Positions 28,732 to 64,000 of a stretch of 64,000 bases of DNA are shown here, in pieces. The notes under the pieces are model-generated. The model was not told the origin of the DNA, searched no databases, and was given only the letters and a program-made list of their open reading frames with translations. This DNA comes from Tricharina praecox. Its lineage: Eukaryota. The stretch's first letter is position 1; each line of letters begins with the position of its first letter. The position numbers were made by a program, and so were the translations under genes. The stretch covers positions 62,001 to 126,000 of the forward strand of contig NW_026250425.1 in assembly GCF_024521635.1 (NCBI RefSeq). Reading direction: 5' to 3'.

Positions 28732-30638
28732 CTAGTCCTTCTTCGTGTTGAGCTCTGTAACGGGCGACGGCGGCGTCTGGTATTGTGGTGATGAGCCCTC
28801 GATCATCTGGCTGTGTGCGGCGATGCCGTGGCGGTCGCCAGCTAATGGAACGGAAGACCTGTCAGTTTTCTGTTGATGATGGATGGAAGGGTTGGGGTGA
28901 TTTGGTAGGCGGGCGGGCGAGTGTCGGGAGAAGAAAGCGGAGAAGATGACGGGGAAAGCAAAGACAGGCGCGGAGAATGACGGGCACGTATTATGCCTCC
29001 ATCATCTCCACCCTTATTCCTGCTTTGTGGGGGGAACATTGATCGCATCGAAGGAGGAAGAACCAGGGAGCTCACCCGCAACAGGACTCGGCTGGTGATG
29101 GTACTCCTTCGCCGGGGTCCAGGCGAGGTAGTCGCGGCGGACCTCGACATAGTCGTACGCGAACTCTCCGAGCTGGTCGTCGTCCATTCCGAGGAGCTCT
29201 GCCTCCTCAGTCGCGCGCAGCTGCAGCCCGGGAACCATGTTGATGGCGTAGCAGATCAGCGCGGTGACCACGAACGTGTACGCGGTGCACGCGACGATGT
29301 ACGCGATCTGGATGTACAGCTGCTTCCAGTTGTGGTTGAGCCAGCCGCCGGTGATGCCGTTGTTGACGCCGTCGAGGCCGATGACGTAGTCGGCGGCGAA
29401 CAGGCCGTTGAAGATGAGCCCGAGCATGCCCGCCACGCCGTGCTCCGCGAACACGTCCATCGTGTCGTCGATGTGGATCAGGTACTTGATCTTGGTGGCG
29501 TAGTTGCAAATGACGCCGGAGCACACGCCGAGAAGGATCGAGGCGTGCAGCGGTAGGAAGCCGGAGGCAGGAGTAGCCGCGACGAGGCCAGAGATCAGCC
29601 CGGAGCAGAGACCGACCATTGACCACTTCTTGGCCAGACGGAAATCAAGGAGCACCCAGGTCATTCCAGACATGACGGCGGTCAGGTTCGAGTTCCAGCA
29701 GGCGATGACAGCGCGGAGGTTAGCACCGAAAGCGGATCCTCCGTTGAAGCCGAGCCAGCCGAACCAGAGGAGGATTGTTCCCAGGGTGATCAAGGAGACG
29801 TTGTGGGGGCGGAAGTTGAGGAGCATCTTCTCCTGACGCTTGCCGAGGACCATCGAGTATGCGAGAGCACCGACTCCGGAAACGATCTCAACGGGACCAC
29901 CGCCTGTAGAAAAAACCAATCAGCATCGGCAAGCCCTGCCGCAATCCCCCCAACCCGTGAAGAACATACCAGCGTAGTCCAAAACACCGTACTGGAAAGC
30001 CCATCCGTTGACATTCCACACCCAGCAGCAGACGGGGCAGTAAACGAGGGTGGTGAAGAAGAAGGTGAAGACCATGGCGGGGAGGAGTCTACCGCGCTCG
30101 GCGATAGCGCCCATGACGATGGCGACTGTGACGGCGGCGAACTGCATCTGGTAGAAACTGTACAGCAGCTCGGGAATGAGCGGCGAGCCTGGTGACGGAG
30201 CGCCCAACGTGTTCTGGAGCGCAAAGCGCTTGAGGTCGCCGATGAAGCCGTTGGTTGCACTCGGCGACAGCGCGAGCGAATATCCCCAGAAATACCACTG
30301 GAACGTCACCACCGCCGACGATCCTATACATGCCCAGATGAGGGACAGAGCGGACTTGCGCCGGGCGAGACCCGAGTAGAGGAAGCCGAGGCCGGGAACC
30401 ATGATCATCACCATCGCCGAGGCGATGAGGATGTAGGAGACGTCACCATGAGTGAACCACTGGTTCAGGTTCTCGGTTCCTGGAAGGGGGAATGCGGTCA
30501 GTTCGGCCCGGGCCAAAACCACCGACGTCCCAGTCGAGACGATTGCGGTTGGACGGGACAATGCTCACTTGAATCACCACCCATCAACGCGTTTGTGCCA
30601 TTGAATTCGGTCGGCGCACCGGTATGGGCGTACGACAT
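28732..30638 (-). CDS. meaA: Ammonium transporter (Amt/Mep), Glu-His MeaA/Mep1-like subtype
   Basis: Exons 30638-30569, 30479-29970, 29903-29076 and probably 28841-28732. Motifs MVPGLGFLYSGLARRKSAL, YQMQFAAVT, ERGR, DYAGGGPVEIVSG, LWFGWLGFNGGS, GLVAATPASG, DDTMDVFAEHG and GMDDDQLGEFAYDYVEVRRDYLAW. Confidence 0.93.
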
Positions 30639-41903: not shown

Positions 41904-44515
41904 AGCAAGAGGTATGGGTATCTCAAAGCCATTCGGGTTGCTGGCTGGCTGGCGCATCTTGATCTTCTTCTCCTCCGCTCGCGCCACTCGTCAAACATCT
42001 GAATGCGGTGGTATCTACAATGCTTATCTGCTGCTGCTATTGCTTGCATGTGCTTTTGCTTGCTTGCTGCACTCAGTTGTTCCGATCGGTGATGAATGTA
42101 TCGCGGGAGGGATCATCAGCCAGACAAGAAATCGCCCCAACGACACACCTACGCCGATACTGCCCCGCCGCATTTCGTCTATCGAGTCTCGAGCAGCTGG
42201 CAGGCATCTTCAGCAGCATCACCAGCAGCAGCAGCAGAAGCAGCAGAAGCAACGGTCTCCTCCCCGTCTTTGCTTGCTGCGATCCGCCTTCGTAAGTGTG
42301 CATGGCGTGCATGAGCCCACCACTAACCACTTATTTACTGACTTACCCTACTCTAGTCTCTATTACGGAGTTGATACGCTGCAGACCCACGCAAGTCGTA
42401 TTTACCTCCATGCTCAGATTCCTCACGACCAATCCCGTCGTCGCCTAGAGGAACCTCTAATGAACGACACCTTACCGTTAATCGGCTGCACTGCAATTTG
42501 GCCTGCAGCTCCCTCAGCTCTAGCGTGTGTCGATTTTTTTGATTTTTTTCCGTCCTTCCTTCCTCCTTTTCTTTCGTACGATTAATACTAACTGCTCCTA
42601 GTACTAGTACACTGGACGAGCAGGCAGCATCAGCCAGAGACGAAGCCGCCTTCTCCCTTCTCCGATCTTCCCATCTCCGCCTTCTCCTGCACCACAGCCC
42701 CTTCCCGCCTGCCCAGCGCCTCCTGCCTTTCCCGCCTTCTCGTTACCGCCCCTGATTTATCGCTCACTGCGGGAATCCTCTGCTCTGCGCCACTTCTGTC
42801 CGGATACCCACACGCGCTTTGCATATGATCCTCGCGATATTGCCAATCATCTCCGTGCTCTCGTAGCAGCCTGACTTGTTCGCAATTATCGCCGCTTCCG
42901 AGAATCCGAACTCTGTAACGACCTCTTGCACGACCAACAAACGAACAGACCGACAAACGGACAAACGAATAACGAATAAACGAATAAACGACCATCACGA
43001 CAATTCAAGACAATTCAAGACCACTCACGACCATTCACGACCTCTTACGACTGTTATTGTATTCTGTTTAGTTTCCTGTCCGAAGCCCGAGATATATATC
43101 GTGAAGAAACGAAGAAACGAAGAAACGGAAACCCGATCCCTTGAAGAACTGTGGCTTGACCGAGAGATATCGAACACGGGCCGACCTTCCACTGTCCCGT
43201 CTTCTTACTGCCTCTGTCCGTACCGTATCCCGAGCTGATACATACTCGATTCGCCACTGAGGTCCTTCCTCTTCTTCCTCCTCTTCAGCTCAGCCCGTCT
43301 CGCCTGCCTAGGGTACATTGTGCCGTGGCTCCCTCTCGTCTCCTCTTTCTTCATCGGCTACTGGCCTTTGCCCTATTCTTGACCTTACCTAGATCCATCC
43401 CCTACCCTTTTTACGCGGCCCCTACCAGCTTACCAGCTTGCCTGCTTGCGGGTAACTAGAGTCCCTAAGTCCCTGGAGCATTCTGCTGCAATTTACCGTC
43501 CCGCGGCCACTCAGACGCTGACCCCGATCCGACGCAGACCACTCTATATCCCCTTGGAGCACCGCATAACGACGGTCCACGCTTTCCTGTGCACTATTAT
43601 CGTCGCTTTTACCGTGACCCACCTTGGCCTTTTCGATTCGACGGAGAGATCTTGGTTAGTAGGAACACATCCTCCAAGTAGGTAGGCCGTCAACAAACAC
43701 CCATCACCCTCTTCCACCATCATCATCGCCGCCTCCACCCTCCACCGCCGCCACCCTTCTTCTTCTTCTCCTCCGGTACGCAACTGCGACTAGCCGCCCT
43801 CTCACTGGTTGTCCTCCCCGTTCGCATTGCTGCCTATCATCCATCATTCCACCCCCATCCACATCATCCTTCTTGACCTACCCTACACGCAAGTCCGTTG
43901 CATGCACATCGCCTCCCTCAAGTGGCCTCCTTGAAGAAAAAGAAGAAGAACACGAAGACGAGAACTGCCTTCCTGCCTTCCTGCCTTCCTGCCTTCCTCT
44001 CCCTGACCCATCCATCGGCACCAACCACATCGTCTCCGAGAAGAAGAATTGAACGAACGCGGGCCCAATCACATCACACTGAGCCCACACAGACGCGACC
44101 AACCCGTCAACCAATACCGCAATTGCTAGCAATTGGTCAGACGGTATTTACTTGCTTGCAATTTGCTTTGCTTGTTACTACTACTCTACTACTCCTGAAC
44201 GGCCGGCCAAACACATCGATACCCTTCCCCCCAACTATTAAACGAATAGACGCCCTCCAACTCCGCGCGCGCGCGTCCTGCCCTGTGTATTACATATTGT
44301 ATTCCATTCATCCAATCCACGAAAGCGAGCCTCGAATTCCTTCTGTGTTATTAGCATCCATTTCCTCCCGTTCCGCGGCCAATCGCATCGTCCAGATTCG
44401 CGTCCATATTTTCCTACATACATAGCGGCCATAGAATCAACGCGCGACTCCCTCGAGAGAGTTCTGTGCTTGTTTCGAACGAGACATCAACGATAATCCA
44501 TCACCATCGCCGGAT

Positions 44516-47500
44516 ATGTCGTCGCCCATGAAGTCATCACGAACCCCTTGCGCCGAAGGGCAGCAACAGCAACAACAATCCACCGCTCCCGGCAGTGAGC
44601 CCTTCCTCCCGCGCGGCCTCTCCGCAGCAAGCAACAACAACACTACCACCACCACCAAAACAGCCGATCGCGGTCAGTCCGCTGTTACCACATGCTCGGT
44701 TCCTCTTCCGGCCGCGGCAACAACGGGAACCACTGTAACACCCATAACTACAACCGCAGCGAAGTCCAACGGCGCCGCGAACGCGAACGTGAACACGTCG
44801 AGCTCCTCGGTCTATGCGCACATGTCGACTGATGGTACTTCTACGTCGGGTACGTATGATAAGCCCCCGCCCTTTGCTAACTCGTCATACTATGGCCAGA
44901 CCTTGAACGGCGGCGGAGGTCTGGGAATAACCACTACAGCTACAGCTACAGCAGCAAATACAGCGGCACATACTTCATCGACACCAATGTCGGCAATGCC
45001 AATACCGATCCCCACTCCCAGTGCACCCCACGGCCTGCCATCCACATACAGGCCCGTGCCGGTGCCACAGGTGTCGCCGTACACCACCGGGCCGCTGGCG
45101 GGAGCGTCATACACCGCGTTGACGCAGAGCAACAGCGCGCACTCGCTCTCGCACACGACCGCGGGCTACATGGGGGGGCAATCGAGCAGCAGCGGCTCCT
45201 CCAACCAGCACCAGCACCACCTGGTGCACCACCACAACGGCCACAGCCAGAGCATGCAGCAGAGCTCCAGCTCGATGCAGCTCGTCGGCGGCGGCAAGAA
45301 CCCGTTCGCGGCGTCCGGCTCCTCCGGCGGCAGCAGCAGCCTGGCCATGGTCCAGCACCAACACACGCACACACACCACAGTCGCACGGGGCTGCGCCGG
45401 AGTCTCAGCGGGATCTGGCGCTCGCTCAAGGAGTCGGAGCGCGAGCAGATCGGCCAGTTTGAGGCGTGGGCCGAGGTCGAGGGGATGTGTCGCGACTGCT
45501 TCGAGCCCGGGTCGTCCGCCGCCGATGCGCCAAGGAAGCATCATGTCAGTGAGCGGTGGGACGCGAAGCGCCGCGTGTGGGTGCCGAGGAGCCCGAGGGG
45601 TTGGGGCGAAAGGAGGAGGAGGAGGTCCACGTCTTCGTCCGATGGAACCGGCAGTAGCACTTCCAGCTCGGACTCGTCGAGTGACGACGCGGGATTGTCC
45701 TCGGGGTCGAGACGGAGGAAGCATGTGTACCGCAGGATCCGCCACGAGCGGAAGATCGAGAGTCGGCGGCGGAGACAGGAGGAGATTCGGAGCGCGGAGC
45801 AATCGCAGGGCTTGTTTGGAAGGGTTGGACGAGCGCTCGGCGTCGTCAGCACTACCACCGCCAGCAGTAGCAGCATGATCAAGCACTCATCGTCGTCGAC
45901 AAAGGTTGTGCACTCGTCGTCGTCGTTGACCGCCGGCCTCCACGCCGGCGGAAGCGCCGCGGGGAAGTCCAGCACTCTCTTTTACGATCCGGGGTACGGC
46001 GCGGACGGCACTCCACACCCACACTACTACGTAGAGGAGGAGGAGGAGGAGCAGGCGCGTCGCTCACGGCGATCGCACGACGGCGTGTACCAAAGCGTCA
46101 AGCACTCGAAGTCCTCGTCGTCCATCATGGGCAGCCTGTGGGGCGGCGCCAGCAAGAAGAAGGATAAGGGCAAATCGCGGCGCGGCTACCACTCCAAGAG
46201 CTCGAGCAGATCCTCGGTGTTTAGCGCGCCGAGCTCAAGCTCCGACAACGGCCTCGCCTACGGCTCGTCCGTCGGCTCGCGGTCGACCAGCGGCGGCGGA
46301 GGATTCTTCAGTCGCAGGAAGAAGCAGAAAGCGACGTCGGTCGCATCGTCGGATGCGCTCGCGTACGGTGATCTCTACTCAACCTCGCCGGAAATGCCGT
46401 GGGGCTCGTTCTCGCCGAAGAAGCCCGCGCCGATCTCGATGGCCGGCTCGATCAAGTCCGCGCTGTGGGGGTCGAAGAAGAGCGAGCGTCGCAGCTCGTG
46501 GGACGTGGTGATCGACAAGCGGCAGCAGCAGAACAACGGGTCGTCGAGCCGGGTTGGCGGCGGGTACAACTACAGCGACGTCGCGCTGACCCGTCACAAC
46601 TCTACGGGTGGCACTCGCGCAAACGCAACCACACGCTCCGGCTTCGTGGCCAACAGGCGCCACTCCTCGACCTCCGTCTATGGCTCGTCCAGCGGCGGAA
46701 AACTTTACCGTGCGCCGAGTAGTAGCAGCGGCTGGATGGGCGACTCCTCCGTCGGCTCGAGACGCAGCAGCTCCTCGGGGAGCAGCTTGTTCGAGGGCGG
46801 CGTGGCGCACGACGTCAAGAAGAGGAAGGAGGAGCGCAATACTACCACTACTGCCATGTCCAGCGGCCGCAGCTGGTGGACACTGGGTTTGCGCCGCGCG
46901 AATACTACTGCTACCACTACTTCTACCGCAGTAACCAGCGCGCGAGCCGCCGCTGCCGTCGCCGCTGGTGGTTCTGCCGGCCGCCGCAACAAATCGCCAA
47001 AATCGTATAGCTCCGACAGCTCCCTCACCCCGTCGAGCGACGACACGCGCCCTAGCAATAGGGGCCCCACGCGACGCGCATCGGCTGTGGCGGCGCTGGG
47101 CGGCGCGCTGTTTGGCTTCGGCGGAAGCAGCAAGAAGAAGCAGCAGACGACAAGAGGTGCGGGCGCGGGGGTCTATGCCGAAGAGCGCAACGGGAACGGG
47201 AGCGAGCGCAGGTCGGCGTCCTCGTATAGGGAGCACACTTATGGAGGACTGGAGCAGAAACAGGTATGTCTAAGTCATCTTCCCCCCACCCCCGTATCTG
47301 TATCACCGGATTTTTCTAAACCTTCGCCCCCACCCCTCGGGCCCGTGAGGAACAACAGACTACATCAAGGTTCGAGCCCACCACCAATGTCAATGTTGCC
47401 TCCACCTCCTCAACCTCCGCAATCGTCCCCGCCCCCCTCCTCGCGACAGAATACTCCTCCTCCTCCTCCCAGCACCGTCGTTCGCGCGTTTCCATCTCTG

Positions 47501-50500
47501 AGCTTGAGCGTGAGCGTGAGCAAACACATTCTTACCAGGGACCTTTTCCACAGCAGCAGCAGCAACAGCAATTCGGGCAACAGCAACAAGCGCAGTTTGG
47601 GCAATTCGGGCAACAAACGCAGTTCGGGCAGCAGCAAGCGCAATACGGGCAGCAACCCTATCTACCGCAATGGCAGCAGCAGCAACAACATCAACACCAG
47701 CAGCAACATCAGCAGCAGCAGTCGGTACAACAAATCGCACATCAGCATCATGAGCAGTATCAACAGTCGGGGTCAGCAGCAGCAACAACAGCAACAAAGG
47801 CAACGGTAATCACCGGCGCGACGCCGTCAACGCTGGTGACGCGCGTTGGCGTGTCCGGTGAGGGAGTGCGGCCCATTCCCTTGCCGCTGCAGACACACGA
47901 GCAGATACCACCGCCACCACCATCGGCGGCGGAGAAAGCAGTAGTAGTAGATAATAGTGTAGTCAATAATTCTTCTTCTTCATCTTCTCGTTATAATATC
48001 CATCAGCATACTTCTTCTTCTCACACATCTCATATTTCACATTCTCATATTTCTCATCAGCATATTTCTCATACTCATATTTCATCTTCTCATTCATCAC
48101 CCTCTTCTTCTTCATCTTCAGAGGCATTTGTTTCGGCCCCCTCGGTCGTGCGCGTTCACGGTCACGGTCAGGGACACGGACACGGACACGGACAGTCTAC
48201 GGCTGCAGGACATGTTTCTGAGGCCTCGTCCAGCGATTCTACTTCCGACTCGAGCTCGAGTTCGAGTAATGATAGCTCGGAGGATGAGGGGCATGTTTCA
48301 CGGAGGAGAGCGGGGGCAGTGGCAGGGGCAGTGGCAGGGGCAGTGGCAGGGACAGTGGCAGGCGGATCTACATCGACGAAAATCACGAAAACAAAAACGG
48401 AAACGGAAACGGAGACGCAGGTGAGGCGGAGCAAAGAGGCTTCGTCGTCTGGTGCGGTAATGGTAGCAGGAGGGGGAGCAGGAGGAGGGGCGGTAATGGG
48501 AGAGGTCATGCGTGGAGAACTCATTGGAGGAGGAAGTGGAGGCAGTGGAGCAGCATCGAGGACAGTGACCGAAGGCGGATCATCAGCGACCACCGGCTCA
48601 GGGGCATTCACTGGCGGAGCAGCAGTAGGAGGAGGATCATTCATGGGGACCGGGCACTCCTCACAATATTCGCACGGCGCGATCTCCGAGTCCTCGAGCT
48701 CCGGCTCCTCGCAGTCATCATCGCAATTCGTTGCCGGCGCATCCACTTTAGCGGCAATCGGGGCATTCCAGCAGCCAGCACGGCACTTTATCGACTTCGA
48801 CAGTGCGCCTCCGATGCCCACAGGCAAGATGTCTTTGCAAGAATCCGTGCGACAAGCCGGTCTCGCGGCCAAAGCCGCGCCGATATCTACGGGTGCGCGG
48901 CTGCGCGCTGCAGCCAACGCGTCGCGCATCGCCGCGGACCAGCTGCGGCTGGAAGCGGAGGCGGTCAAGGCGCGGCGCGATCAGGAGCTGGCGGATCAGG
49001 CGCGGCAGGACACGATACGCCGGAAGCTCGAGGATGATAGACGGCTTGATGAGCTCGCAAAGGAGAAGATTCGCGAGTTTGAGAGGCTGAAGGAGGTTGA
49101 GAGGGCGAGGGTTAATGAGCTCGAGAAGGCGGCGATTAGGACCGCCATGATTGCCCGCGAGAAGAGAGATCGTGAGGTTAAGGAGGCCGAGCTGTGGAGG
49201 GCTGAACATGAGAAGGCGGAGAGGACCAGGAAGGCGCTGGAGGCGGGGATCGACGAGCGCAGGAGGCGCGAGAGTCTCGCTATCGAGGAGAAGATTGAGC
49301 TCGAGCAGCGGGCGGAGAGGGAGAAGCAGGAGGGCCGACGCAGGGAGTTGCTGGAGGCCGAGGCGAGGCGGCTGGGGTATCTGAGAGCTGAGAAGGAGCG
49401 GCTGGTACAGAAGCAGAGGAGAGAGTCGGTTACTGCTACGGCTACTACTACTTCCTCTACGAAGGAACTGCACTCGTACTCCTCCTCCTCCTCCTCCGAG
49501 AGCGTTCAGCGGGACGTATCCAGGGGACGCACGTCCGGTCGCGATCAGGCTATCATCAACACCAGCTCCACATCTGCGAGTGGCGAGCATGCGGCCGAGG
49601 AGCGTGGACGAAAGCAGACCTGGACGCAACGGCAGATCCAGCTGGCGGCCGAGGCCAAGGCTCAGGAGACGACGATCTCCACTGCGCAGCCATCAGGCAC
49701 ACAAGTCGTCACCTCTACAGAGAAACTCGAGTCGACCTCAGTGGTCTCTTCATCCGACGAGACGGAAGAGAACCGACTCTCGCGCACTGCGCTCGAGCGG
49801 CAAAAAGCCGAGCTCGAATCCATGATCGCGGAAGCGAAGAAGCGCAGCGTCAAAGATCGGCGGCGCCGCGAGCGCAGCTCGGACGAGTACAAGAAGAAGG
49901 AGCGACGGCGGCAGCGCGACTCGTCGCGCGACCGCGAAGCCGAGCGCGCCGAGGCACGGAAACAGGAGGTCGAGTATGTCCGCAAGAAGCTCGGGCTCGG
50001 GCCCATCGTCAAGGACACGCCCGACGAGAAGAAGAAGGCTATCACGTTCACGGACGAGGAGAAGGAGGCTATGATTGATCGCTTCGGCACCTGGGAGAAC
50101 TGGACTGGTAGGGTCCCCAGACTCATCGAGACCCCGCCCACGCCGAGGTTTGGCGCCGCGATGACTGTCCCCGTGGTCCACTGCGAGGGTAGCGATTACT
50201 TTGGCGGCGCGACTCATGAGCCGTCCAGCGCGCCGGAGACTGTCTACCCCGTCATGACCGCCCCCGGGACCCCGTCTATCTCCATCAGTGGCCCCGATGA
50301 CGTTCCGGACCTGCCTTCTCTCGGCGACGAGCCGGAGATTGTCACCGCGGAGCTGGAAATTGTCGTCGCAGAACCCGACTTTGGCGATGATTTCGCGCCG
50401 ACCGATATGCCGCCGTTCGTTGCGTTCAACCCCGTCGCGGGCATCGAGTCGAATCATGGCAATGCTTTTGTGCCCGCCATGCCGGCTATGCCATCGAGTG

Positions 50501-53500
50501 AAGTCTTTTACGGACCCGAACTCCCGTCTGCCGGCGTCGTTGGCGGCGAGAATGCTAGCTATTACTCCGGCCAGGTCGCGCAGGAGGTCAAGAAATCCGA
50601 GGAGACCGCACGTGTGGCGCAGTACCATCGGCAAGTGGGAGAGACGACGGAGACGCAGCGCGCACAGGTTGAGCATAGTGAGAGCACTGGCGGATCGCGA
50701 CAGGAGTACTACACCATGGCGAAAGAGGTGGACCAGCAGCTAGAGCAGATCAAGTCCGCGGATAGCAAGAAGGAGGAGGAGGAGAAGGAGAAGAAAGAGA
50801 AGCACGAGCGCTGGAGTGGTGGGTTTGTTGAGGGAACTAAGGGCAGCGAGAAGTTCCGTGCTCCCGGCATCCCCTCCGTTGCCGCCGCGAAGCCGAGTAT
50901 TGCCCCGGTCATGAGTGTGCCGCAGGTTCTCCGCGTTGCGGAATCCCAGCAGCAGCATGAGACGGTGGACGTGGAACGCAGGACGTCGTTTGGTTCGTAT
51001 GAGGAGAAGACGGAGCGCAAGTCGCTCGACTCGGAAAGGGAGCGGTTGCAGCATATACTCAAGCGCACGGAGAGTGCGTCGACCAAGTCCGAGACCGCAT
51101 CGCTGTATTCGCTCGACTCGAACGCGACGGACCAGCACCCACCATCCTCCCCTGAGGACGCAAAGAAGGAGCCCAAGAAGCCGTCGAGGTGGGGTTCCTT
51201 TTGGAAAGAGAAGACGCCCGCCGCCGTCGAGAAGAAGAAGGGCACGCTCGGTTGGTACGCGGCAGCACAGAAACTGAAGGATGCCACGTCGGCGGCGGTA
51301 TCGACATCGTCGATTCCTGAAGCGTCAGCTTCCGCATCGCAAGGTATAACTCCCCTCCCCGTCCGGTGATCACGCGCTGACAAGTCCACAGCTACCACCG
51401 CCGGCGCATCCACCAGCCGTCTCCCGCGCCCCGCCGCGCCATCTTTCAAAACGCTACAATCCATCGCCAGCACGAGCAGCAGCTCGATCTCGTCGAGCGG
51501 GTACCACACTGCCGGCAGCACCACGCCCACGCAGACACCGCGCGCGCCCGCGCCAGTCAACTACTTTGCCGAATCGAAGCCGTCGTCGGAACTCGACGTG
51601 TTCAATGAGCCCGAGGTCGTCACCCCTACGCCTAAGCAGCAGGAGGCCGCAGAGTTCCGCGCCATCACCGCGATGGCCGCGGAGGCCGCTGGGTACTCCG
51701 AGGGCGTGGTTAGGAAGGTGGTTAATCAGGAGCATGGACATGGCGGGGTTGCAAATGGTAATGGGAGTGCGCATGGGAGTAATGGGAGTAGTGAGAAGCC
51801 GGGGACGACAGCGTTCCTGTCGAATTTCGACGAGATTGAAAACGATAGGAAGAAGCGGGCGAATAGGAGGGTGCCGCAGTCGGAGCTGGAGTCGGAGTTC
51901 GAGGATGAGACGTATGAGCGGACCGAGTACCAGCGGCAAGAAAGCCAGCGGACGCAGGTCCCCGACTCTCCTGTGTCCACGGCGTTCGATGCGCAGGGGC
52001 TTCTCCAAAGCTATGATAGCCAGAAGGTCTCGGCCTCTCAGGCGGCGTCGGCATCGGCATCGGCGGGTTTTCGCAGCGGTCAGCTACTGGGGTTTGGAAC
52101 TGACCGCGCCGCGATACAAACCCACCACCTCCGCCGGTACGAACAGGAGCAGGAGCATGAGCGGGAGCAGGGGCGCCAAGACGCGGTAAGATTTGAGGCG
52201 GCGAGGTTTGAGGCGGCTCAGCAGCTGCAACGGCAGGATGGGCAGTGGACGCAGATCGAGGCCTCTCCGACGATTCCTACGGGATTTGTTCAGCAGGAGC
52301 GGTACGAGAAAGGCGAGCATGCCTATCAGGATAGCCAACAGACACAACCCGCTACCTCGCCCGTATCGACGGCCTTCGATGCAAGGGAGCTGCTGAAACG
52401 CTACGATAGCCAGCAACAGAGTAGCTCGAGCCAATATGTTGGAGCTGAGCAGACCCAGTCCTCGTCGGCAGTGTTTGGAACAACCCAACAACTCCAGCAG
52501 CAGCACCGGCAGAACATCGAGCAGGAACGCCAATTGACGACGTTTGAGCGTCAAGCAACTTCGGCGCAGTTCGAGGCTACGCAGCAGCTGCAGCGGCAGG
52601 ATGGGCAGTGGACACAGGTCGAGGCTTCTCCGACGATTCCTACGGGATTTGTTCAGCAGGAGCGGTACGAGAAAAGCGAGCATGCCTATCAGGATAGCCA
52701 ACAGACACAACCCGCTACCTCGCCCGTATCGACGGCCTTCGATGCACGGGAGCTGCTGCAACGTTACGATAGCCAACACCAGAGCTCAAGCCAATATGTT
52801 GCCCCTTCGGCATCGGTGGGAGCTGAGCAGACCCAGTCCTCGTCGGCAGGGTTTGGAACAACTCAGCAATTCCAGCAGCACCAACAGAACATCGAGCAGG
52901 AACGCCAATTGACGACGTTTGAGCGTGACGCATCTTCGGTGCAGTTGGAGGCTACTCAGCAGCTGCAACGGCAGGACGGCCGGTGGACACAGTTATCTGC
53001 CTCTCCGATGATCCCGACGGGATTTGTTGAGCAGCCGCAGCAGCCGCAGCAGCAACTACAGAAACTGCACTATGAGCAGGAGCAGGATCAGGAGCGCCAG
53101 TCGGCGGTAAGATTTGAGGCTGCCCAACAGCTACAACGGCAGAACGGGCAGTGGACACAGGTCGAGGCTTCTCCGACGATTCCTACGGGATTTGTTCAGC
53201 AGGAGCGGTACGAGAAAAGCGAGCATGCCTATCAGGATAGCCAACAGACACAACCCGCTACCTCGCCCGTATCGACGGCCTTCGATGCACGGGAGCTGCT
53301 GCAACGTTACGATAGCCAACACCAGAGCTCAAGCCAATATGTTGCCCCTTCGGCATCGGTGGGAGCTGAGCAGACCCAGTCCTCGTCGGCAGTGTTTGGA
53401 ACAACCCAACAACTCCAGCAGCAGCACCAACAGAACGTCGAGCAGGAACGCCAATTGACGACGTTTGAACGTCAGGCGACATCGGCGCAGTTGGGGGCTA

Positions 53501-56500
53501 CTCAGCAGCTGCAACGGCAGGATGGACAGTGGACACAGTTTACCACCTCTCCTACGTTGCCATGGGGGTTTGACCAGCAAGCACAAGAGCAATACAAGCA
53601 GGAACGTCGTTTGGCGGGAGTTGGAGCCAGTCAGCAGGAGGTGGTTGAGGTCGGTGTGCGCGCAGACGTTGAGGCCGCCAACGAACGACAATACCAGCTT
53701 CGCCAGGAACTACAGCGTCAGGAATTGCTGCGTCAGACTACCGATCATTCTGCGTCTGCGGCGGGGTTTGAGAAACGTCAGGAGCAACCCGCTACCTCTC
53801 CTGTGTCGACGGCATTTGATGCACGGCAGCTACTGCAACGTTATGACAGCCAGCGCCAGTCGTTTGAGGCCACTCAGCAGCTGCAGCGTCAGGATGGGCA
53901 GTGGACCCAATTCACTAGCTCACCCTCACTGCCATCAAGGTTTAGCCAGCAAGCACAAGAGCAATACAAGCAGGAACGTCGTTCGGCGGAGGTTGGAGCC
54001 AGTCAGCAGGTGGCGGCTGAGGTTGATGTGGTCGCGGAAGTTGAGACTGCCCAGGAACGGCTATACCAGCATCGCCAGGAACCGCAGCGCCAGACTACCG
54101 AGCACTCCGCGTCGGCGGCGGGGTTTGAGAAACGTCAGGAGCAATCCGCTTCCTCTCCTGTGTCGACGGCCTTTGATGCACGGCAACTACTGCAACGTTA
54201 CGACAGCCAGCGCCAGTCGTTTGAGGCCACTCAGCAGCTGCAGCGTCAGGACGGGCAGTGGACCCAATTCACTACCTCACCCGCGCTGCCATGGGGGTTC
54301 GATCAGCCACAGAAGAGCGAGTTTGTTGCACTGTCCACGTCGGCGGGATTTGAGGTTGGCCGGGTCGCCCAACAGACGCAGTTCGCTACGTTGCCCGAGG
54401 TCTCGCAGAAATACCAGAAGTCGCACCAGGCCTACGAGCAGGAACGTCCATCGGTATTTGAGGCGCCAAAGTCTCAGTACGCCCCCTCAACCGGACCGGC
54501 TGGGCTTGGAATCAGCCAACAGTCGGAATTTGAGGAACGTCGGGAGCAATCTGCTTCCTCTTCTCCGTCCGCGGCGGGGTTTGAGAAACGTCAGGAGCAA
54601 TCTGCCACCTCTTCTGCTTCAGCGGCGGGGTTTGAGCATCGTCCGGAGCAATCCGCTACCTCCCCCGTATCAACAGCATTTGATGCACGGCAACTACTGC
54701 AACGTTACGATAGCCAGCGCCAGTCGTTCGAGGCTACTCAGCAGCTACAGCGTCAGGATGGGCAGTGGACTCAATTCACTACCTCACTCTCGCTGCTATA
54801 CGGGTTCGATCAACCGAAGAAGAGCCAGTTTGTTGCACCTTCCACGTCGGCGGGGTTTGAGATTGGCCGGGTCGCCCAGCAGACGCAGTTCGCTGCGATG
54901 CCTGAAGTTTCTCAGCAGTATCAGAAGCCGCATCAGACCTACGAGCAGGAACATCCGTCGGTGGAGTCAAAGTCTCAGTACACCCCTTCATCCGGGCTGG
55001 CGGGACTTGGAATCAGCCAAGAGACGGAGTTTGAAGAACGGCGGGAGCAAGTCGCTACCTCTTCTGCTTCAGCAGCGGGGTTTGAGCAAGGTCAGGAGCA
55101 ATCCGCTTCCTCTCCTGTGTCGACAGCATTTGATGCACGACAGCTACTGCAACGATATGACAGCCAGCGCCTGTCGTTTGAGGCCACTCAGCAGCTGCAG
55201 CGTCAAGACGGGCAGTGGACACAATTTACCACCTCTCCCATGTTGCCTTCGGAGTTCGATCAGCCGAAGAAGAGCCAGTTTGTTGCACCTTCCACGTCAG
55301 CAGGGTTTGAGGTTGGCCGGGTCGCTCAGCGGACGCAGTTCGCTACGGTGCCTGAGGTTTCCCAGCAATACCAGAAGTCGCACCATACCTACGAGCAGGA
55401 ACGTCCGGCAGTGTTTGAGGAGTCAAAGTCGCAGTACGCCCCCTCAACCGGGCCGATGGGGCTTGGAATCAGCCAACAGGCGGAATTTGAGGAGAATCGG
55501 GAGGAATTCGCTTCCTCTACTGCGTCGGCGGCGGGGTTTGAGGAACGTCGGGAGCAATCCGCTTCCTCTCCTGTGTCGACGGCCTTTGATGCACGGCAAC
55601 TACTGCAACGTTACGATAGCCAACGCCAGTCGTTTGAGGCCACTCAGCAGCTGCAGCGCCAGGATGGGCAGTGGACTCAATTCACTACCTCTCCCATGCT
55701 GCCTTCGGGGGTTGAAGTTAGCCAGCAGCGTCATCACGAACAGCAGCGTCAAGATATAAGGCAGACCGCGTCTACTGTCGGACTCGATACACGTCGGGAC
55801 CATTCTCGTCCTTCGTCTTCCTCGAGGGTTGAGTTGACCCAGCAACACAAGCTTGAGCAACGCCGTGAGCAACAGCACCAGGATTTGCAGGAGAGCGAGC
55901 ACTCTGCCGAGGAGAGAAGTGACCATGAGGAACAAGAGGAACAGCTTCGTGAGGGTACTACAGAGGGAGGGGAGGCGTTCACCGCTCTTGGACTCCGCGG
56001 AGGTTATCTGCACAGCCGTGATCGCGACGAAAATGAGTACAAATTCGCAGAGAGAACAAAGAAGGGGAAGAAGGAGAAGAAGGAGAAGCATCGCGAGAAC
56101 GGATCGGCGATCAAGGAGGTCAGCCATCAGAGGAGCTCCAGCAGCCATCGGAACGTCGAGAGTGGAGCTTCCGCGTCAGAGGGGAGAACCCAGGAACAAC
56201 AACGTCCTGGGACTACTCCCGTTCAATCATACGCACAAGCGATTCGGGGGCGGGTGTCTACCCAGGGAGCAATCCAGGGCCACCAATCCGACACGTACCA
56301 TGAGACCTCCGGTCAGCAAATCGCCACCGAGCGCCCGCCTCATGTCTCGCAGGCGTCAGAATCCGGCGCTACCCGTGCCCGATACGATCAGACCACAGGC
56401 ACCCTACCATATGTCGCAATGCCTTCACCCACCACTGGAGGCTACATCTCTCAGCCGGCCACACCAGTTGAGCAGTGGACTTCGGGTGGACACCTCGCGA

Positions 56501-59500
56501 ACGTGGGCGCCCCACCTTTGGGCGCCGAATTAAGCCAGACTAAGTCCGAACAATGTGAGTTTCCCTTATCTTGGAGGTCCAGATTGCGCAAAGTGCTTAC
56601 AATAGATCTAGTTTCCTCTTCCCAGCCCGCTGTCCAGGAGTGGGAGGCGCAGCAGGCACAAGTTGAAAAGACCCAGCATCAGCAACGCTATCAGGGAGCA
56701 GAGATTGAACACCACACCGCGCTCCCGGTGGAAACGACTCAGGAGAGCTACAGCTCCCAGTCTGCCGTTGAGGAATGGGCGTCGGGACAACAGGCTTCAG
56801 CTAAGCAGTATAACCAGACCGTGGATGCAGCCCAAAATGCGCAGTCCGAGCATCGCCAGGAAACCCAGACTCTGGCGGTTATCCCAGCCTCCGCAACTGG
56901 CGGATACATCTCTCAGCCGGCTTCAGCCGTTGAGCAGTGGACTTCGGGCGGGTATCTCGCGCACACGGGTGTTGAGAACAGGGCCGTCGAGCCACAGGAA
57001 CGTCACCAGGACACCATCCAGAGCTCACAACCTGCCATTTCGGAGTGGAATCAGCGTACGCATCATCAGGTTGCGGAGACTTCTCAGACGACGTCTGAGG
57101 CCCGATATGAGCAAGCCACCGGCACTGCAGCATTTGTTCCCATGCCTGTGCCAGCCACCGGCTACATCTCGCAGCCAGCGACGCCGGTTGAGCAGTGGAC
57201 GGCAGGTGGATACCTCGCGAACACTGGCTTTGAGCTTCACAGTGCCCAGTCGGTACAAGATCAACGAGAACGTACCCAGCCCGTCGATGTTGCCGCTTCT
57301 CTACAGAGTTCCCAGCCTGCCGTTGCGGAGTGGAATGCGCGCCAGGCAGCTCTTCGGCACACTAAATCAGAACAGTACGAGCACCACCAAACTATGGAGA
57401 GTCCAGCATTTGTCCCTCTGCCAGCGGAGGCGACCCAGAGTTACACCTCCCAGTCTGCTGTTCATGAGTCGGAAGCACGCCGGTCAGCCGTCAATGCCCA
57501 AGCCATCCAACATCGGATCGAGCAAACCACTGGGACTTCAGAACATACTGATATGCCGATGCCAACCACCGGGGGCTACATATCTCAGCCGGCAACGCCT
57601 TCTTACGAATGGACTTCGGGCGGGTATCTTGCAAATGCAGGTGCCGAGCTCCCCTACATTCCCCTGCAGACCACGGAGACCGAGGAGTACGAGCGTCGCC
57701 AGGATAATGCTCGCGAGGATGTTGTCACCCGTGTGCAAGCGGAGCGCAGCTACAGCTCTCAGCCTGCAGTTCAGGAATGGGAAGCGAAGCAGGCCGAAAA
57801 TCGCGCCGCTCAGTTTGCCGAAGGCCTTTCAGAGCGAAACCAGAGCACCGAGACATTGACAGTTATGCCTGCGCCAGCCCAGACGACTGGAGGATACATC
57901 ACTCAGCCGGCCGCGACTACCGAGCAGTTGACTTTGGGAGGATATCTCACGAACGCGGGTGCCGAGCTCACCTACAATACTGCGGTCGAGACAACCGAGA
58001 GCTACAGCTCTCAGCCTGCCGTTGCGGAATGGGAAGCGAAGCAGGCAGCTATTCGTGCCACTCAGTTTGCGCAAGGACTTTCAGAGCGACACCAGAGCAC
58101 CGAGACATCCGCAGTTGTGCCTGCGCCAGCCCAGATGACTGGAGGCTACATCTCACAGCCGGCAACACCCTCTGAGGAATGGACGTCGGGTGGGTATCTC
58201 GCGAACGCAGGTGTCGAGCTCGCCTACAATGCTCCTGTCCAGACAGCCGAGAGCTACAGCTCGCAGCCGGCGGTTCAGGAATGGGAAGCGAAGCAGGCAG
58301 CTATTCGTGCCGCTCAGTTTGCCGAAGGCCTTTCAGAGCGAAACCAGAGCACCGAGACATTAACAGTTATGCCTGCGCCAACACAGACGACTGGCGGCTA
58401 CATCACCCAGCCTACCACGACTACCGAGCAGTTGGCTTTGGGAGGATATCTTGCGAATGCGGGTGTTTCCAGCTCTCAGCCAGCGGTTCAGGAATGGGAA
58501 GCGGAGCAGGCAGCAATCCGCGCTGCTCAGTTTGCTCAAGGACTGTCCGAGCGATACCAGAGTACCGAGACATCGGTAGCTATGCCTGCGCCAACGCAGA
58601 CGACTGGAGGCTATATCTCACAGCCGGCAACACCCTCTGAGGAATGGACGTCGGGCGGGTATCTCGCGAGCGCAGGTGCTGAACTTCCTTATGTACCCCA
58701 ACCAGCCGCACTCGAGTACGAGCGACACCAGGATACTACGCCGGCACAGGGAGGGCGGATCCCCAACTCTTCGACTGCCGTGGAGGAGTGGAATGTACGC
58801 CAGTCGCATGATGTCCAGGCCGACCAGAGCCAGCACGAGCAACGCCAGCACAGCGAGGCTGTTCCTGTAAGGCCGCGGCCCACCCAGAGCTACAGCTCTC
58901 AGCCCGCGGTCATCGAATGGGAAGCCAGGCAGCAACGGTATGCCGACCGCAGCCAGAGCCAGACGCAGCAATACATCGCAGACGAGACGGACCAGAAGAC
59001 GCCGCGCCAATACCCCGCCGACATCCAGATGCCATCATCCACCGCTATGATGCACACCAGTCCCTTGACCACTCCGGTTGAGGAATACACGACATCTGAG
59101 CCAGGCTGGGGCGCATCAATCCCCCTTTCATTCTCACAGCCCAATTCCGAGGTTTCTAACACGCCGTCACGCCGTCAACGCCGCGCTTCGTCTGCCTTCA
59201 GCGACACCACAACTGCGGCTGAATCTGGAACCACCTACTCCGTCATTTCCCGCGGTGCGGCTTCGACCGTGCTCACCAGCATCGATGATCTCGAAGCCTT
59301 CGAGTGCCGTCGCGAGAGCAAGAGGGAGTACGACGATAGTACGGACTCCGATTCCGATGGAGAATTGTCAGGCGAGGATGTGGAAGGAGCGTCTCTCGCA
59401 GAAGGCCAGCAGACGGCTCAGGGTGAAGAAGGCCCGAAGTTGGGTCTCCGTGGAGGAGATGCTGGCCAGGGCCGACGTCGTCACCGCACGAAGGAGGAGA

Positions 59501-62500
59501 AGGCAGCTAGCAAGAAGCGCCGCGAAGCACGTCGCGAAGAGAGGCGGCTCAGGGAGGAGCAGGGAGAGGGGAAGCAGCAAGTTCGCCGGAAGATCTCTCG
59601 TTCACAAACCGAGGTCGTCGACTCTACCTCAAAGCCTACCAAGGAGACGCCTAAGCAATCTGGTGGTGACGGTAGCTGGAGTCGCTTCTTAGGCAAGTTT
59701 GTCAGCCCCGCACCCACCACCGCCGCCGTCGCCGTCGCCGCCACCAAGGCCAGCAGCCTTCGCCGCGTCAAGTCCGGCTCCGAAAAGTCACTCAAGAAAT
59801 CCACCTCGGACATGAGCCTCAGCGATAAGCTCGACAGCAAAATTCAATTGCAGCGCGACTCATCTACCGAGAGCTGGCAGGGGGTACAGAAGGACGGCGA
59901 GGAGAAGACCAAGAAGAAGCGCCGCAACAGGGAATCGTCGGTTTCCTCCGATGTCGGAGACACTACTTCGGCGGAACGGACGCCCGGTCGTGTTCGCTCT
60001 GCTTCCGGCACCGTCACTCTCGCCGAGGATCTTGATGGGCTTATTGCCAAGTTGAAGATCGAGCGCACTGAAGAGGAGCAAAAGAGTTTGGGACTGAGAG
60101 GTGGCGAGCTGAGGGATGAGGGGAAGAAGAATAAGAAGATGGATATCCTCACATATCTCGAGGAGAAGGAGAAGCTACAAGAGCGCAAGAAGAAGAAGGC
60201 GCTGAAGGAGAAGGAGCGAGCCGAGCGCGAAAGAAAGAGGGAGAAGAAGGAGAGGAGGAAGATGAGAAAGGAGGAGCAGAAGAAGGCCGGTGAGGCAGTG
60301 GAAGAGTCGTCGTCTGAGGAGGAACAAGAGGGTGTTAAATTGGACGACAACGGCGCTGCCGAGCTAGTCGAGGACCTCAGTGAGAGCGACATCGACGAGG
60401 CCTCGTACGTCCAGGCGAAGCAGCAGCCTGGCAACAACGGTGTTGTCCTCCCCGGCGTGCAGATTGGAATCCAGCCGGAGCATATGGAAGAGGAGGAGGA
60501 GGAGGGATCTATGGCCAAGAAAGCCATGAAGATTGCAGATGAGAAAAAGGTGAAGAAGCTCTCTGATGCTACTGCTACTGCCCCCTCCTCGTTGCACGAA
60601 GATGATTTTGCCCTGGTTGCAGGACGCAAACAGGTATCCTCCTAATTCTCTGTCCTTCCCTTTGCTTTGAATCCTGCGCTATCAGTTTGGATATTGCCTC
60701 CCTTTGGGACCTTTCCGAACATAGGCTAACGTCAACGAGGAGGTTGCGGGCAACAGGAGTGGTAGAAAAGAAGAAAAAAAGGCAGCTGTACAGGGAAAGT
60801 TGAGGGGAGGAGATAGATTGTCAGATGTTGAAGAGGAGCAGGAGGGTGGAAAGTTTTCTCATGTTTTAGATTTTGTGCCCGTCAGCAGTATTAAATCGGC
60901 CGGTTCTTATTATGTTTCTTCGTCTTCGACGTTACCTGGGGATTTGCCATCTGTTCGTTTTTCGTTGCCGGGCGAGACACAGCCTGTCTTGCCAGGTCAG
61001 TCACCTGCATTGCAGAAGCCCTCCGAGGTCGTCTTGCCGGAGGGAAAGCCTGATGTTTTGAAGTCTTCCAGTGTGTTTCCTCTCTGTTGATTGTATTACC
61101 GGCTATTGCTTACGATGTATTAGTACATGAGATCAAATTGCCCCAGCACCGTTTGGAAGAAATTGGATCCCAGAAGGAATCATCCTTGCCGTGCCCCGCC
61201 GAAGCACCAGCCGTCACTTCCGAGACTACCCCAAAATCACCTGTTACTACCGCGGAAGAAGAGGGCTTTCCATTGATCAGCTCCCCGAGGTCAACAAATA
61301 CCGAGGATGAAGAGGAGTACTCGTGGTGGGCGGAATCACCGGAGAGGATTGAGAGTGAGGAGAGAGCGTATCCCCTCCACCTCAAGTTGCAACAGCCGGA
61401 ATACGTGCAGCTTCCAGAGAGCGGCCCAACTTCGCCCTACGAGCTCCCCAAGCTGCATGGTACTTTTCCCACTCTCGAGCCGCACCAAACGGCGTATGAG
61501 TCGGACAGCGAGTCGATAGTTATCCTGAGTGACGCCGATATGGAAGAGCTTCCGCTTAGCCTAAAGCTGGAACGCCCAGAGTATTTGATGCTGCCCGATA
61601 GCCGACCCGGATCGCCTTACGAAGTTCCGGGTGTTCCCTGGTGGCTGCCGGACCTCCCAGAGAGTCCTATCGATTCGCCGACTCAGTTGCCACAGCTTCG
61701 GGATGATGGGGACGTCGATGTCGAAGAGCTTCCCCTGCATCTCAGACTGCAACAGCCGGAGTACGTTATGCTCCCAGACAGTCCCGTCGGTTCGCCCACC
61801 CAATTGCTGCGGCTACAGCCCAGCCTTCCGGAGCACCTTGACCTCAACCTCCACACAGAAGAGGGGAAAGAGGAGAACGCCCAGCTCATCATTGAGCACC
61901 TATCTTCGCCCGCCATGTCCAGCGAGTTTGAGTCCGACGTTGAGCTTCAGCTGGGTAGAACGCCCTCCCCGGGAGTCCTCAGCGTTAGCGATGAAGAGGA
62001 GCTGCCCCTGAACCTGAAGCTGCAACGGCCCGAGTATGTGATGCTGCCCGACAGCAACCCAGGATCTCCTTACGAAGTTCTAGGTGTCTCGTGGTGGCTA
62101 CCCGTTCTGCCAGAGAGCCCGATCGACTCGCCTACACAACTGCTGATTCACGGTGAGGAAGTGGACGATATCGAAGCGTTTCCCCCCCAGTTGAGGCTGC
62201 AGCAGCCGGAGTATGTTATGCACCCAGATAGCGCTCCCAATTCGCCGACGCAGTTGCCAGCTTTGCCGTACATTGCTCCGAAGAGTCTGCCGATCGGAAT
62301 TCAAGACGAGCAGAAGGAAGATGATGTTGCGGGATTGATTGCTCGAGAGGATGCGGAGGAGCTGCCACTTCACCTCAGGCTGCAGCGGCCCGAGTATGTC
62401 ATGCTCCCAGATAGCAGGCCCGGTTCGCCCTACGAAGTTGAAGAGATCCAGCGGTCTCTGTCAGCTCTGGGTTTGCGTACCCAACTGCCGAAGTTACAGG

Positions 62501-64000
62501 ACAGTATTCTGGAGACTCGGCCGTTCGCCACACAAGATGAGAACAAGGAGGACGACGTCGCGAGAATAGTTGGGCTAGAGGACGCAGAGGAACTTCCTCT
62601 TCATCGCAGACTGAAGCGGCCGGAGTATGTCATGCTACCAGACAGCAGACCCGGTTCGCCAACGCAATTATCGCTGCCAACGGATTCTATTGCAATGACT
62701 CTCCCGTTCGCCACTCGAGATGAGAAGAAGGAGGACGACGTCGCCAGAATGGTTGGACTAGAAGATGCTGAGGAGCTTCCTCTTCATCTCAGGCTGCAAC
62801 GGCCGGAATACGTGATGCTCCCGGATAGAGCCCCTAGATCTCCTTACGAGCTCTCGGTGATGCCTTGGGATCTTCCATCGCTACCGGAGAGCACTCCTGG
62901 TTCGCCAGCGCAGTTACCACTTGCAGTGTCTCTCCCGTTCCCAACTCAAGATGAGAACACGGAGGACGATGTCGCGCGAATGGTTGGGCTAGAAGATGCT
63001 GAAGAGCTTCCTCTTCATCTCAGGTTGCAGCGGCCGGAGTATGTCATGCTCCCAGAAAGCAGGCCCGGTTCGCCCTACGAAGTTGAAGAGATCCAGCGGT
63101 CTCTGCCAGCTCTGGGTTTGCGTACCCAACTGCCGAAGTTACACGACAGCACTCTGGAGACTCGGCTATTCGCCACCCAAGATGAGAACAAGGAGGACAA
63201 TGTTGCTGGATTGGTCAGACTGGAGGATGCAGAAGAGCTTCCGCTTCATCTCAGGTTGCAACGGCCGGAATACGTGATGCTCCCGGATAGCAGACCCGGT
63301 TCGCCCTACGAACTCTCGGAAATGCCTTGGGATCTTCCATCGCTACCGGAGAGCGCGCCTGGTTCGCCAGCGCAGTCACCATTTGCAGTGTCTCTCCCGT
63401 TCGCCACCCAAGATGAGAAGGAGGAGGACGACGTCGCGAGAATAGTTGGGCTAGAGGACGCAGAGGAACTTCCTCTTCATCGCAGACTGCAGCGGCCGGA
63501 GTATGTCATGCTACCAGACAGCAGACCCGATTCGCCAACGCAATTATCGCGGCCAACGGATTCTATTGCAGTGTCTCTCTCGTCCGCCACTCAAGATGAG
63601 AAGAAGGAGGACGACGTCGCGAGAATGGTTGGGTTGGAGGACGCAGAGGAGCTCCCGCTTCATCTCAGGTTGCAACGGCCGGAATACGTGATGCTCCCGG
63701 ATAGCAGACCCGGTTCGCCCTACGAACTCTCGGAAATGCCTTGGGATCTTCCATCGCTACCGGAGAGCGCGCCTGGTTCGCCAGCGCAGTCACCATTTGC
63801 AGTGTCTCTCCCGTTCGCCACCCAAGATGAGAAGGAGGAGGACGACGTCGCGAGAATGGTTGGGTTGGAGGACGCAGAGGAGCTTCCTCCTCACCTCAGG
63901 CTGCAACGGCCGGAATACGTGATGCTCCCGGATAGCAACCCTGGATCGCCCTACGAAATGCCAGAACTTCCTTGGTATCTACCTGCTCTACCAAAGAGCG
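44516..64000 (+). CDS. Giant low-complexity repeat protein (over 6,300 aa, 3' end outside window), function unknown
   Basis: Phase-compatible introns join the separate ORFs: 47264-47553 (GTATGT...CTTAC...CAG), 51344-51391 (GTATAA...CTGAC...CAG), 56555-56611 (GTGAGT...CTTAC...TAG, in frame), 60634-60739/42 (GTATCC...GCTAAC...GAG) and 61071-61123 (GTGTGT...CTTAC...TAG). The last exon stays open in frame 1 to the window end. The start codon is uncertain. Confidence 0.78.
51940..55720 (+). repeat. Coding repeat block I (Q-rich): SPVSTAFDARxLLQRYDSQ x9 and QQLQRQDGQWTQ x10
   Basis: Counted in the translated ORF; several nucleotide copies are near-identical. Confidence 0.95.
56400..58940 (+). repeat. 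Coding repeat block II: TGGYISQPATP.E.WTSGGYLAN x8 interleaved with SSQPAVxEW motifs
   Basis: Counted in the translated ORF. Confidence 0.92.
61370..64000 (+). repeat. Coding repeat block III: EELPLHLRLQRPEYVMLPDSRPGSP, at least 13 copies, 183/231-bp units in the distal part
   Basis: Frame-1 translation by hand; PEY anchors at 62389, 62620, 62803, 63034, 63265, 63496, 63679 and 63910, plus five more diverged copies from about 61396. Confidence 0.92.

Follow-up and report, generated by a model that had tools for sequence, protein, structure and literature searches.

Within a 64,000-nucleotide (nt) stretch of the Tricharina praecox genome (Pyronemataceae, Pezizales, Pezizomycetes; contig NW_026250425.1, positions 62,001 to 126,000, forward strand), hereafter the window, lies a gene for a giant protein in which the hexapeptide LGLRGG occurs three times. 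Comparison of aligned relatives shows these copies to behave as a single short linear motif maintained by selection. Ubiquitin ends in LRLRGG and NEDD8/Rub1 in LALRGG; LGLRGG matches the LxLRGG tail at five of six positions, and its small Gly where NEDD8 has Ala suggests that it is closer to NEDD8 than to ubiquitin.

Recurrence and conservation of LGLRGG

The three copies and a shorter relative, all on the forward strand, are:

55987..56004, +: LGLRGG site 1, amino acids (aa) 3777-3782, encoded by CTT GGA CTC CGC GGA GGT, between repeat blocks I and II; the next residue is Y.
59440..59457, +: LGLRGG site 2, aa 4909-4914, encoded by TTG GGT CTC CGT GGA GGA, with an acidic run before it and D and a basic helix after it.
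60088..60105, +: LGLRGG site 3, aa 5125-5130, encoded by TTG GGA CTG AGA GGT GGC, between two helices.
60797..60811, +: KLRGG site 4, in exon 5, not conserved and with the charge pattern reversed.

Re-reading of the sequence returned exactly the coordinates and codons that an earlier, sequence-only reading had assigned to the three LGLRGG and the one KLRGG. That reading had also described the flanks as non-homologous and the motifs as standing outside the repeat blocks, and both descriptions held. When 80 aa on each side of sites 1-3 were compared by BLASTP with the motif removed, nothing was significant (best E 0.79; two of the three pairs gave no match), and none of the motifs falls inside the tandem arrays located by Tandem Repeats Finder at 54594-55709, 57748-58465 and 62690-63719. 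The sole flank match with E<0.01 joined sites 3 and 4 through a K/E low-complexity run. Recent duplication was rejected as the origin of the motif on the basis of its unrelated flanks and differing codons, the 18-mers that encode the three hexapeptides having only 11-13 of 18 bases in common. An RNA-level explanation was also rejected, because the fold of 59420-59480 is weak (z -1.98) and the codons differ between sites. The switch from acidic to basic sequence claimed for each LGLRGG was recovered as net charges over 30 aa upstream and downstream of -9/+5, -8/+8 and -3/+3 at sites 1-3; at site 4 the pattern is opposite (+1 upstream and -4 downstream, 30 aa each). The repeat blocks that surround the motifs are the following:

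51967..55709, +: repeat block I, Q-rich units with SPVSTAFDAR.LL, nine copies.
56437..58626, +: repeat block II, units with GGYI[ST]QP, seven copies.
61723..64000, +: repeat block III, acidic P/E/L/S-rich units (EELPLHLRLQRPEYV..., LPxLPES core), Leashin-like, after the Woronin-body tether of that name.

A count of LRGG against background, proposed as a check in the sequence-only reading, put it far above a background taken from composition, shuffles and the six-frame window. In the 6,375-aa RNA-supported protein four LRGG are seen and 0.112 expected from composition (Poisson P(>=4) = 6e-6), and three LGLRGG are seen and 4.4e-4 expected (Poisson P(>=3) = 1.4e-11); three or more LRGG never arose in 20,000 shuffles of the 3,091-aa open reading frame (ORF). 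A long and repetitive protein might throw up such strings by chance, or by recent internal duplication, with no function attached. These counts, the codon and flank differences, the position of the motifs outside the arrays, and their conservation across Pyronemataceae and Tarzettaceae with synonymous change only, leave that explanation a negligible share of the probability. Separase, tankyrase-binding, clathrin-box, dileucine and SUMO-interaction motifs were compared by eye, using their generally known consensuses, and did not fit LGLRGG.

A profile of the segment between sites 2 and 3, run against 1.84 billion representatives, matched six proteins at E<=1e-3, with named matches in Wilcoxina mikolae (Pyronemataceae) and Geopyxis carbonaria (Tarzettaceae). 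Together with matches from word-indexed searches, the set of instances drawn up for comparison comprises nine orthologous proteins with 18 LRGG; the 204-aa fragment P0007, which is close to P0004 and likewise has GRLRGG, was excluded. L-R-G-G is present in 18/18 instances. Around it, counting outward from LRGG (n=18), the residues are:

Position -2: L in 15, G in 3.
Position -1: G in 14, R in 3, K in 1.
Position +1: D in 12, E in 3, Y in 2, H in 1.
Position -4: P in 8.
Positions -8 to -6: mostly E/D.
Positions +10 onward: mostly R/K.

The consensus is thus an acidic run, then (P)x, then L-G-L-R-G-G, then D/E. One instance in P0009 is LRLRGG, the exact ubiquitin tail. Site 1 reads GLGLRGG(H/Y)LHRRDR in two metagenome relatives, L001/P0014 and L002. 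Site 2 is kept in P0003, P0005, P0004 (two copies), P0006, P0008 and P0009, and site 3 appears as LGLRGG, GRLRGG or GLRLRGG in P0003, P0005, P0004, P0007, P0008, P0009 and P0010; the Wilcoxina model is without site 3, possibly through model error. In an alignment of eight sequences, down to 34% identity, the LRGG columns form islands of identity amid diverging flanks, and across the six motif codons at the three sites the window, L001 and L002 differ by synonymous changes only. The expectation that the motif would be conserved in orthologues while its flanks diverge therefore stands for sites 1-3 and fails for site 4, which is NLKGG in L001 and KFWKR in L002.

All four RGG tripeptides of the window protein are LRGG, 200 to 1,132 residues apart, and in each orthologue model listed every RGG is likewise LRGG. 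This confinement of RGG to the motif could be taken to mean that the sites serve arginine methylation by a protein arginine methyltransferase, or that they are RNA-binding RGG elements. RGG boxes, though, are clustered Gly-rich repeats, and here four isolated RGG are spread over 6,375 aa; the invariant Leu at -1 and the L at -3 from Arg would go unexplained, and the downstream P/E/L/S parts of L001 and L002 hold one ERGG and one TRGG without the motif. We regard such a role as very improbable.

Host gene and structural context

The gene is followed to the end of the window, where it is still open, with the structure given here:

44516..64000, +: host gene, its joined exons reading through at least 6,375 codons with no stop.
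44516-47263, 47359-51343, 51392-56554, 56612-60633, 60740-61070 and 61124-64000+, +: exons, from RNA contigs.
47264-47358, 51344-51391, 56555-56611, 60634-60739 and 61071-61123, +: introns, with GT..AG joints in RNA runs X1 and X2.

Contigs from X1 and X2 cover 30/30 bins of 44001-64000 and represent spliced RNA, because their skips are bounded by GT..AG; the soil metatranscriptome runs X3 and X4 gave small shares only, too small to support any claim on habitat. No one RNA contig spans the entire gene, the longest (9.7 kb) bridging the first two introns. We infer a start codon at 44516. The 9.7-kb contig reaches 1,566 nt upstream of 44001, which means that the 5′ leader is long or that more exons lie upstream. 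The NCBI model (hypothetical protein, 1,743 aa, P0002; 100% match) begins within exon 3, stops inside the last intron, 61071-61123, which it retains, and is a fragment of a far larger gene. KLRGG had been placed in the next predicted exon, and the RNA contigs do skip 60634-60739. An alternative joint at 60547-60755 (207-nt skip, GT..AG, in both RNA runs) has only 27 letters on its short side; it would delete 101 coding bases, shifting the frame of the KLRGG exon, and could either represent a minor isoform or stem from an error of assembly.

Pfam accepted no domain in any part of the gene or its relatives. Matches to Cyclase_polyket (E 6.9e-8) and NRDE-2 in 61054-63999 look spurious and were discarded: no stretch passes alone, the best being ~26 aa within the P/E/L/S repeats. 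Scans of the host-gene ORFs, of the relatives and of 20 neighbouring ORFs out of the 73 listed found no protease family, the part beyond the window being covered in L002 only. The neighbouring genes, a Sir2-family deacetylase and an ammonium transporter (two exon ORFs) at 22682-23761 (-) and 29017-30564 (-), are unrelated to the motif.

The 347-aa segment that carries sites 2 and 3 was modelled with AlphaFold2 from only three aligned sequences; the model has a mean predicted local distance difference test score (pLDDT) of 50.7 and a predicted template modelling score (pTM) of 0.20. Helices are predicted at 43-57, 113-149, 293-311 and 331-346, and the remainder is coil. Two features adjoin the motifs:

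59491..59601, +: basic K/R/E-rich helix after site 2 (AlphaFold2 helix 113-149, block pLDDT ~76-91).
60031..60192, +: helix, LGLRGG coil and helix at site 3 (DLDGLIAKLK... / DILTYLEEKEK...; AlphaFold2 helices 293-311 and 331-346).

Both LRGG of the modelled segment have pLDDT <50, as do residues 313-321 in the coil at site 3, and because they stand in such coil between helices the motifs are presumably accessible. The sequence-only reading had seen no ubiquitin fold ahead of the motifs, in agreement with the model at sites 2 and 3, which contains coil and helices only, and with the lack of a Pfam domain; upstream of site 1 the sequence is low-complexity Q/E/R.

The motif could alternatively be a structural hinge, its Gly-Gly breaking or capping helices at the switch from acidic arm to basic helix, with the oppositely charged arms folding back or zipping between molecules and the Leu residues packing locally. 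The charge switch accompanies 16/18 instances (the exceptions are T. praecox site 4 and P0010), a confident basic helix begins ~12 residues past site 2, helices lie on either side of site 3, and D/E after Gly-Gly is a common helix N-cap. A hinge would nevertheless not need the Leu and Arg found in 18/18 instances, the model of the sites 2-3 segment contains no hairpin or contact between acidic and basic arms, and the protein has 61 GG dipeptides that lack this context. On balance we consider a hinge quite unlikely.

Other conserved islands lie between sites 2 and 3, namely SWSRF, EKSLKKSTSD, (E)SW(E/Q)xV and PLPADLDxxIAKL. One of them, STESWQGV (59863-59886; ESWEEV in relatives), is an acidic, Ser-rich W-x-x-V island that looks like a WEEL-type Atg8-interacting motif (AIM, or LC3-interacting region, LIR). 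SLRRVKSGS at 59755-59781 aligns with H-R-R-x-x-S in the more distant relatives P0004, P0006, P0008, P0009 and P0010, Tricharina having L for H; the form in these relatives fits HxRxxS, the consensus of NDR/LATS kinases. In Neurospora, COT-1, a kinase of the NDR type, is recruited by LAH-2 (PMC7275032). Elsewhere in the gene, FGTWENWTGRVPRLIETPPTP and its surroundings (50083-50145) are the best-conserved part of exon 2 and are common to Wilcoxina and Geopyxis.

A probable Leashin-type tether and the reading of its motif

The host protein is probably a Leashin/Lah-type Woronin-body tether or scaffold, judged by its size, its acidic P/E/L/S repeats and the C-terminal layout of a relative, all set beside published descriptions of Lah. 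Leashins are described as 5,936-10,821 aa long and as occurring in all Pezizomycotina (PMC2690989); the present protein, of at least 6,375 aa, is likewise a giant single Pezizomycotina polypeptide. Its last exon in the window is 13.8% P, 14.1% L, 12.6% E and 9.0% S with a net charge of -111, and contains LPxLPES five times; the continuation in L002 contains it ten times, LPALPES three times among them, and shuffles gave any LPxLPES-type match in only 12-18 of 2,000. The Neurospora Leashin R1 consensus ends in LLPALPES (PMC2690989), and the LPxLPES core resembles that end, both proteins having a poorly conserved acidic P/E/L/S repeat region. At the far end of the gene, L002 18208-20829 encodes a Ser/Pro-rich region, a coiled-coil-like stretch of ~170 aa and, 80 aa on, a hydrophobic segment followed by an intron. 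Within that ORF the coiled-coil-like part, recognised by reading the sequence, occupies aa 583-752; hydrophobicity peaks in a 19-mer beginning at aa 832-835 (mean hydropathy 1.2), where the locus ends. The spacing is similar to that in A. fumigatus LahC, with a coiled coil at 509-686 and a transmembrane segment at 761-781 of 1000 (PMC5345055); this likeness is the relative's, the window itself ending before the C-terminus.

At the other end, where residues 1-344 of LAH, in the Leashin N-terminal region, bind WSC on Woronin bodies, a Cys motif is all that the first exon has in common with giant proteins of other Ascomycota, among them a 3,814-aa acidic protein of Penicillium tannophilum (P0016/P0017):

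45482..45544, +: N-terminal Cys motif GMCRDCFEPGSS..DAPRKHH, common to P0014, P0015 and P0016/P0017.

We found no literature report of its CFEPGSS string. The protein further differs from Leashin in its Q-rich blocks I and II and its LRGG hub, which are undescribed there. Word-indexed searches of proteins of up to 5,000 aa, a range outside which full-length Leashins fall, named only close relatives or unnamed proteins (3/8,000, 2/211 and 3/8,000 candidates). An Atlas search with the N-terminal region gave no match, one with the far end of L002 gave unnamed Ascomycota clusters only (scores 0.92 and 0.91), and cluster look-ups for the relatives returned 'hypothetical protein' names only.

How the motif works is a separate matter. 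The reading we favour, tentatively and at somewhat short of an even chance, is that LGLRGG may be a ubiquitin/NEDD8-tail mimic read by the cleft of a protease for ubiquitin-like proteins (UBLs) and, if so, probably cut after Gly-Gly. That a cut actually takes place at the motif we hold to be rather doubtful. The reader would be the narrow tail-binding cleft of a ubiquitin- or UBL-specific cysteine protease, which could be a deneddylase of the DEN1/DenA type or an enzyme of the USP or UCH kind, and two invariant glycines are what so narrow a tunnel would require. Productive binding in the tail cleft would lead to a cut after Gly-Gly. Tail readers other than proteases need a free Gly-Gly end, and a cut would therefore be implied again. 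LRGG-AMC, a bare peptide, is a substrate of USP1-UAF1 and, only when WDR20 is present, of USP12; USP1 also cleaves its own chain at an internal Gly-Gly (PMC8024992). In fungi, DenA/DEN1 forms a cytoplasmic pool 'located mainly at septa' (PMC4806917), and the septal pore is where Leashin/Lah anchors (PMC5345055).

Cuts would sever the tether at defined joints, at the boundary of blocks I and II and at both ends of the motif-rich hub that precedes the acidic P/E/L/S spring. Each downstream piece would start with D, E, Y or H. These are destabilising N-terminal residues in the Arg/N-degron pathway; residues of the destabilising class make up 51% of the protein, so the +1 signal is weak, resting as it does on about three independent sites. 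Any cutting would need to be partial or under regulation, since a tether that is cut constitutively could not tether. For the same reason the term 'polyprotein' in the sequence-only reading is doubtful: the protein looks like one continuous Leashin-type tether or scaffold, which constitutive cutting would destroy. The division into modules by a deubiquitinase that the same reading put forward is still a hypothesis, and its idea that the di-Gly ends might be conjugatable found no support.

Several considerations weigh against tail mimicry and cleavage. The cut is a prediction, and RNA data cannot reveal a cut in a protein. Cellular deubiquitinases (DUBs) normally need the ubiquitin fold, and that fold is absent at sites 2 and 3 by both Pfam and AlphaFold2. 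A tether must be continuous between its N- and C-terminal ends, and the Leashin identity of the host protein is itself not proven. Site 2 has decayed to SSQRDGD in Geopyxis P0010, and site 4 is not conserved in L001 and L002, in an exon otherwise 72-77% identical. The Penicillium protein that shares the N-terminal Cys motif has no LRGG, and in the profile search the motif was found only in Pezizales relatives; because of this restriction, the link of DenA to septa in A. nidulans is independent of the motif. The 18 instances come down to only about three sites shared by orthology, with P0004 contributing one additional copy, which makes the +1 statistics weak. Finally, looking for ubiquitin-like tails will sometimes yield chance look-alikes among many conserved motifs.

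Alternatively, LGLRGG(D/E) may be a docking motif that is never cut and that stands beside other short linear motifs in a scaffold hub, its likeness to a ubiquitin tail being coincidental. We consider this nearly as likely as recognition by a protease cleft. The sites 2-3 segment is packed with the other conserved islands and is mostly disordered, as scaffold hubs typically are; LAH-2 serves as a scaffold that recruits clients (PMC7275032), and a tether has to remain intact. L, R and G are common residues, and a chance LRGG likeness among many conserved motifs is possible. Coincidence has to contend, however, with the match at five of six tail positions and with variants, GRLRGG and LRLRGG, that remain in ubiquitin-like space. 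Two invariant glycines would also be unusual for a docking motif, and this one has no known partner.

If the motif is a tail mimic that is cut, the Neurospora leashin locus offers a parallel, being naturally split into two proteins with separate roles (PMC7275032, PMC2690989). Because both Neurospora proteins work, separated halves can be functional. It is conceivable, although improbable, that the single-gene Leashin of Pezizales is split post-translationally at LGLRGG by a DenA/DEN1-type septal protease, which would give an intact tether together with LAH-1-like and LAH-2-like pieces, the downstream ones timed for Arg/N-degron removal. If true, such splitting would be the proteolytic counterpart of the Neurospora gene split, and the protein would be the first cellular one processed at bare ubiquitin-tail motifs without a ubiquitin fold.

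Significance and comparison with known Gly-Gly sites

We found no report of the LGLRGG motif, or of LRGG linked to septal tethers or Woronin bodies; among the matches listed, literature on an 'LRGG motif' concerned ISG15, PLpro and DUB-probe work only. Were it a cut site, cellular proteases for ubiquitin and NEDD8 tails could process the protein at bare LxLRGG peptides, and septal-pore tethers would gain a built-in switch for release or remodelling, which bears on the freeing and repositioning of Woronin bodies and on the targets of septum-bound DenA/DEN1. Were it a docking site, a new short linear motif would be defined in giant fungal scaffolds, a family that is still poorly understood. Either way, an RNA-supported structure for a gene of at least 6,375 codons replaces a fragmentary public model.

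Compared with the tails of ubiquitin and NEDD8, the motif agrees with LxLRGG at five of six positions, has L at -2 in 15/18 instances and in P0009 is the ubiquitin hexapeptide itself. It differs in that no beta-grasp domain (~70-80 aa) precedes sites 2 and 3, and in being internal, repeated and placed in a disordered giant protein. SDE2-type proteins reportedly carry an N-terminal UBL followed by Gly-Gly and are cut there by DUBs. They share with the Tricharina protein an internal Gly-Gly in a cellular protein, a processed site in SDE2 and a candidate site here; SDE2 has a ubiquitin-like fold before the site, whereas the Tricharina protein does not. Viral polyproteins and leaders have (L/I/M)xGG sites that are cut by papain-like or adenain-type (clan CE) proteases. 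These too are short L-x-G-G strings in unfolded linkers, several per polypeptide, that are read without a ubiquitin fold. Unlike them, the motif here lies in an intron-bearing cellular fungal gene with no linked protease found, and its Arg is invariant where the viral consensus allows any residue. Human USP1 cuts itself and carries its own catalytic domain; no protease domain was found in the window part of the Tricharina protein, and peptide cleavage needs the activated enzyme. What the two cases have in common is a ubiquitin-like Gly-Gly outside the ubiquitin fold, which, for USP1 and for LRGG-AMC, can be cut by a USP (PMC8024992).

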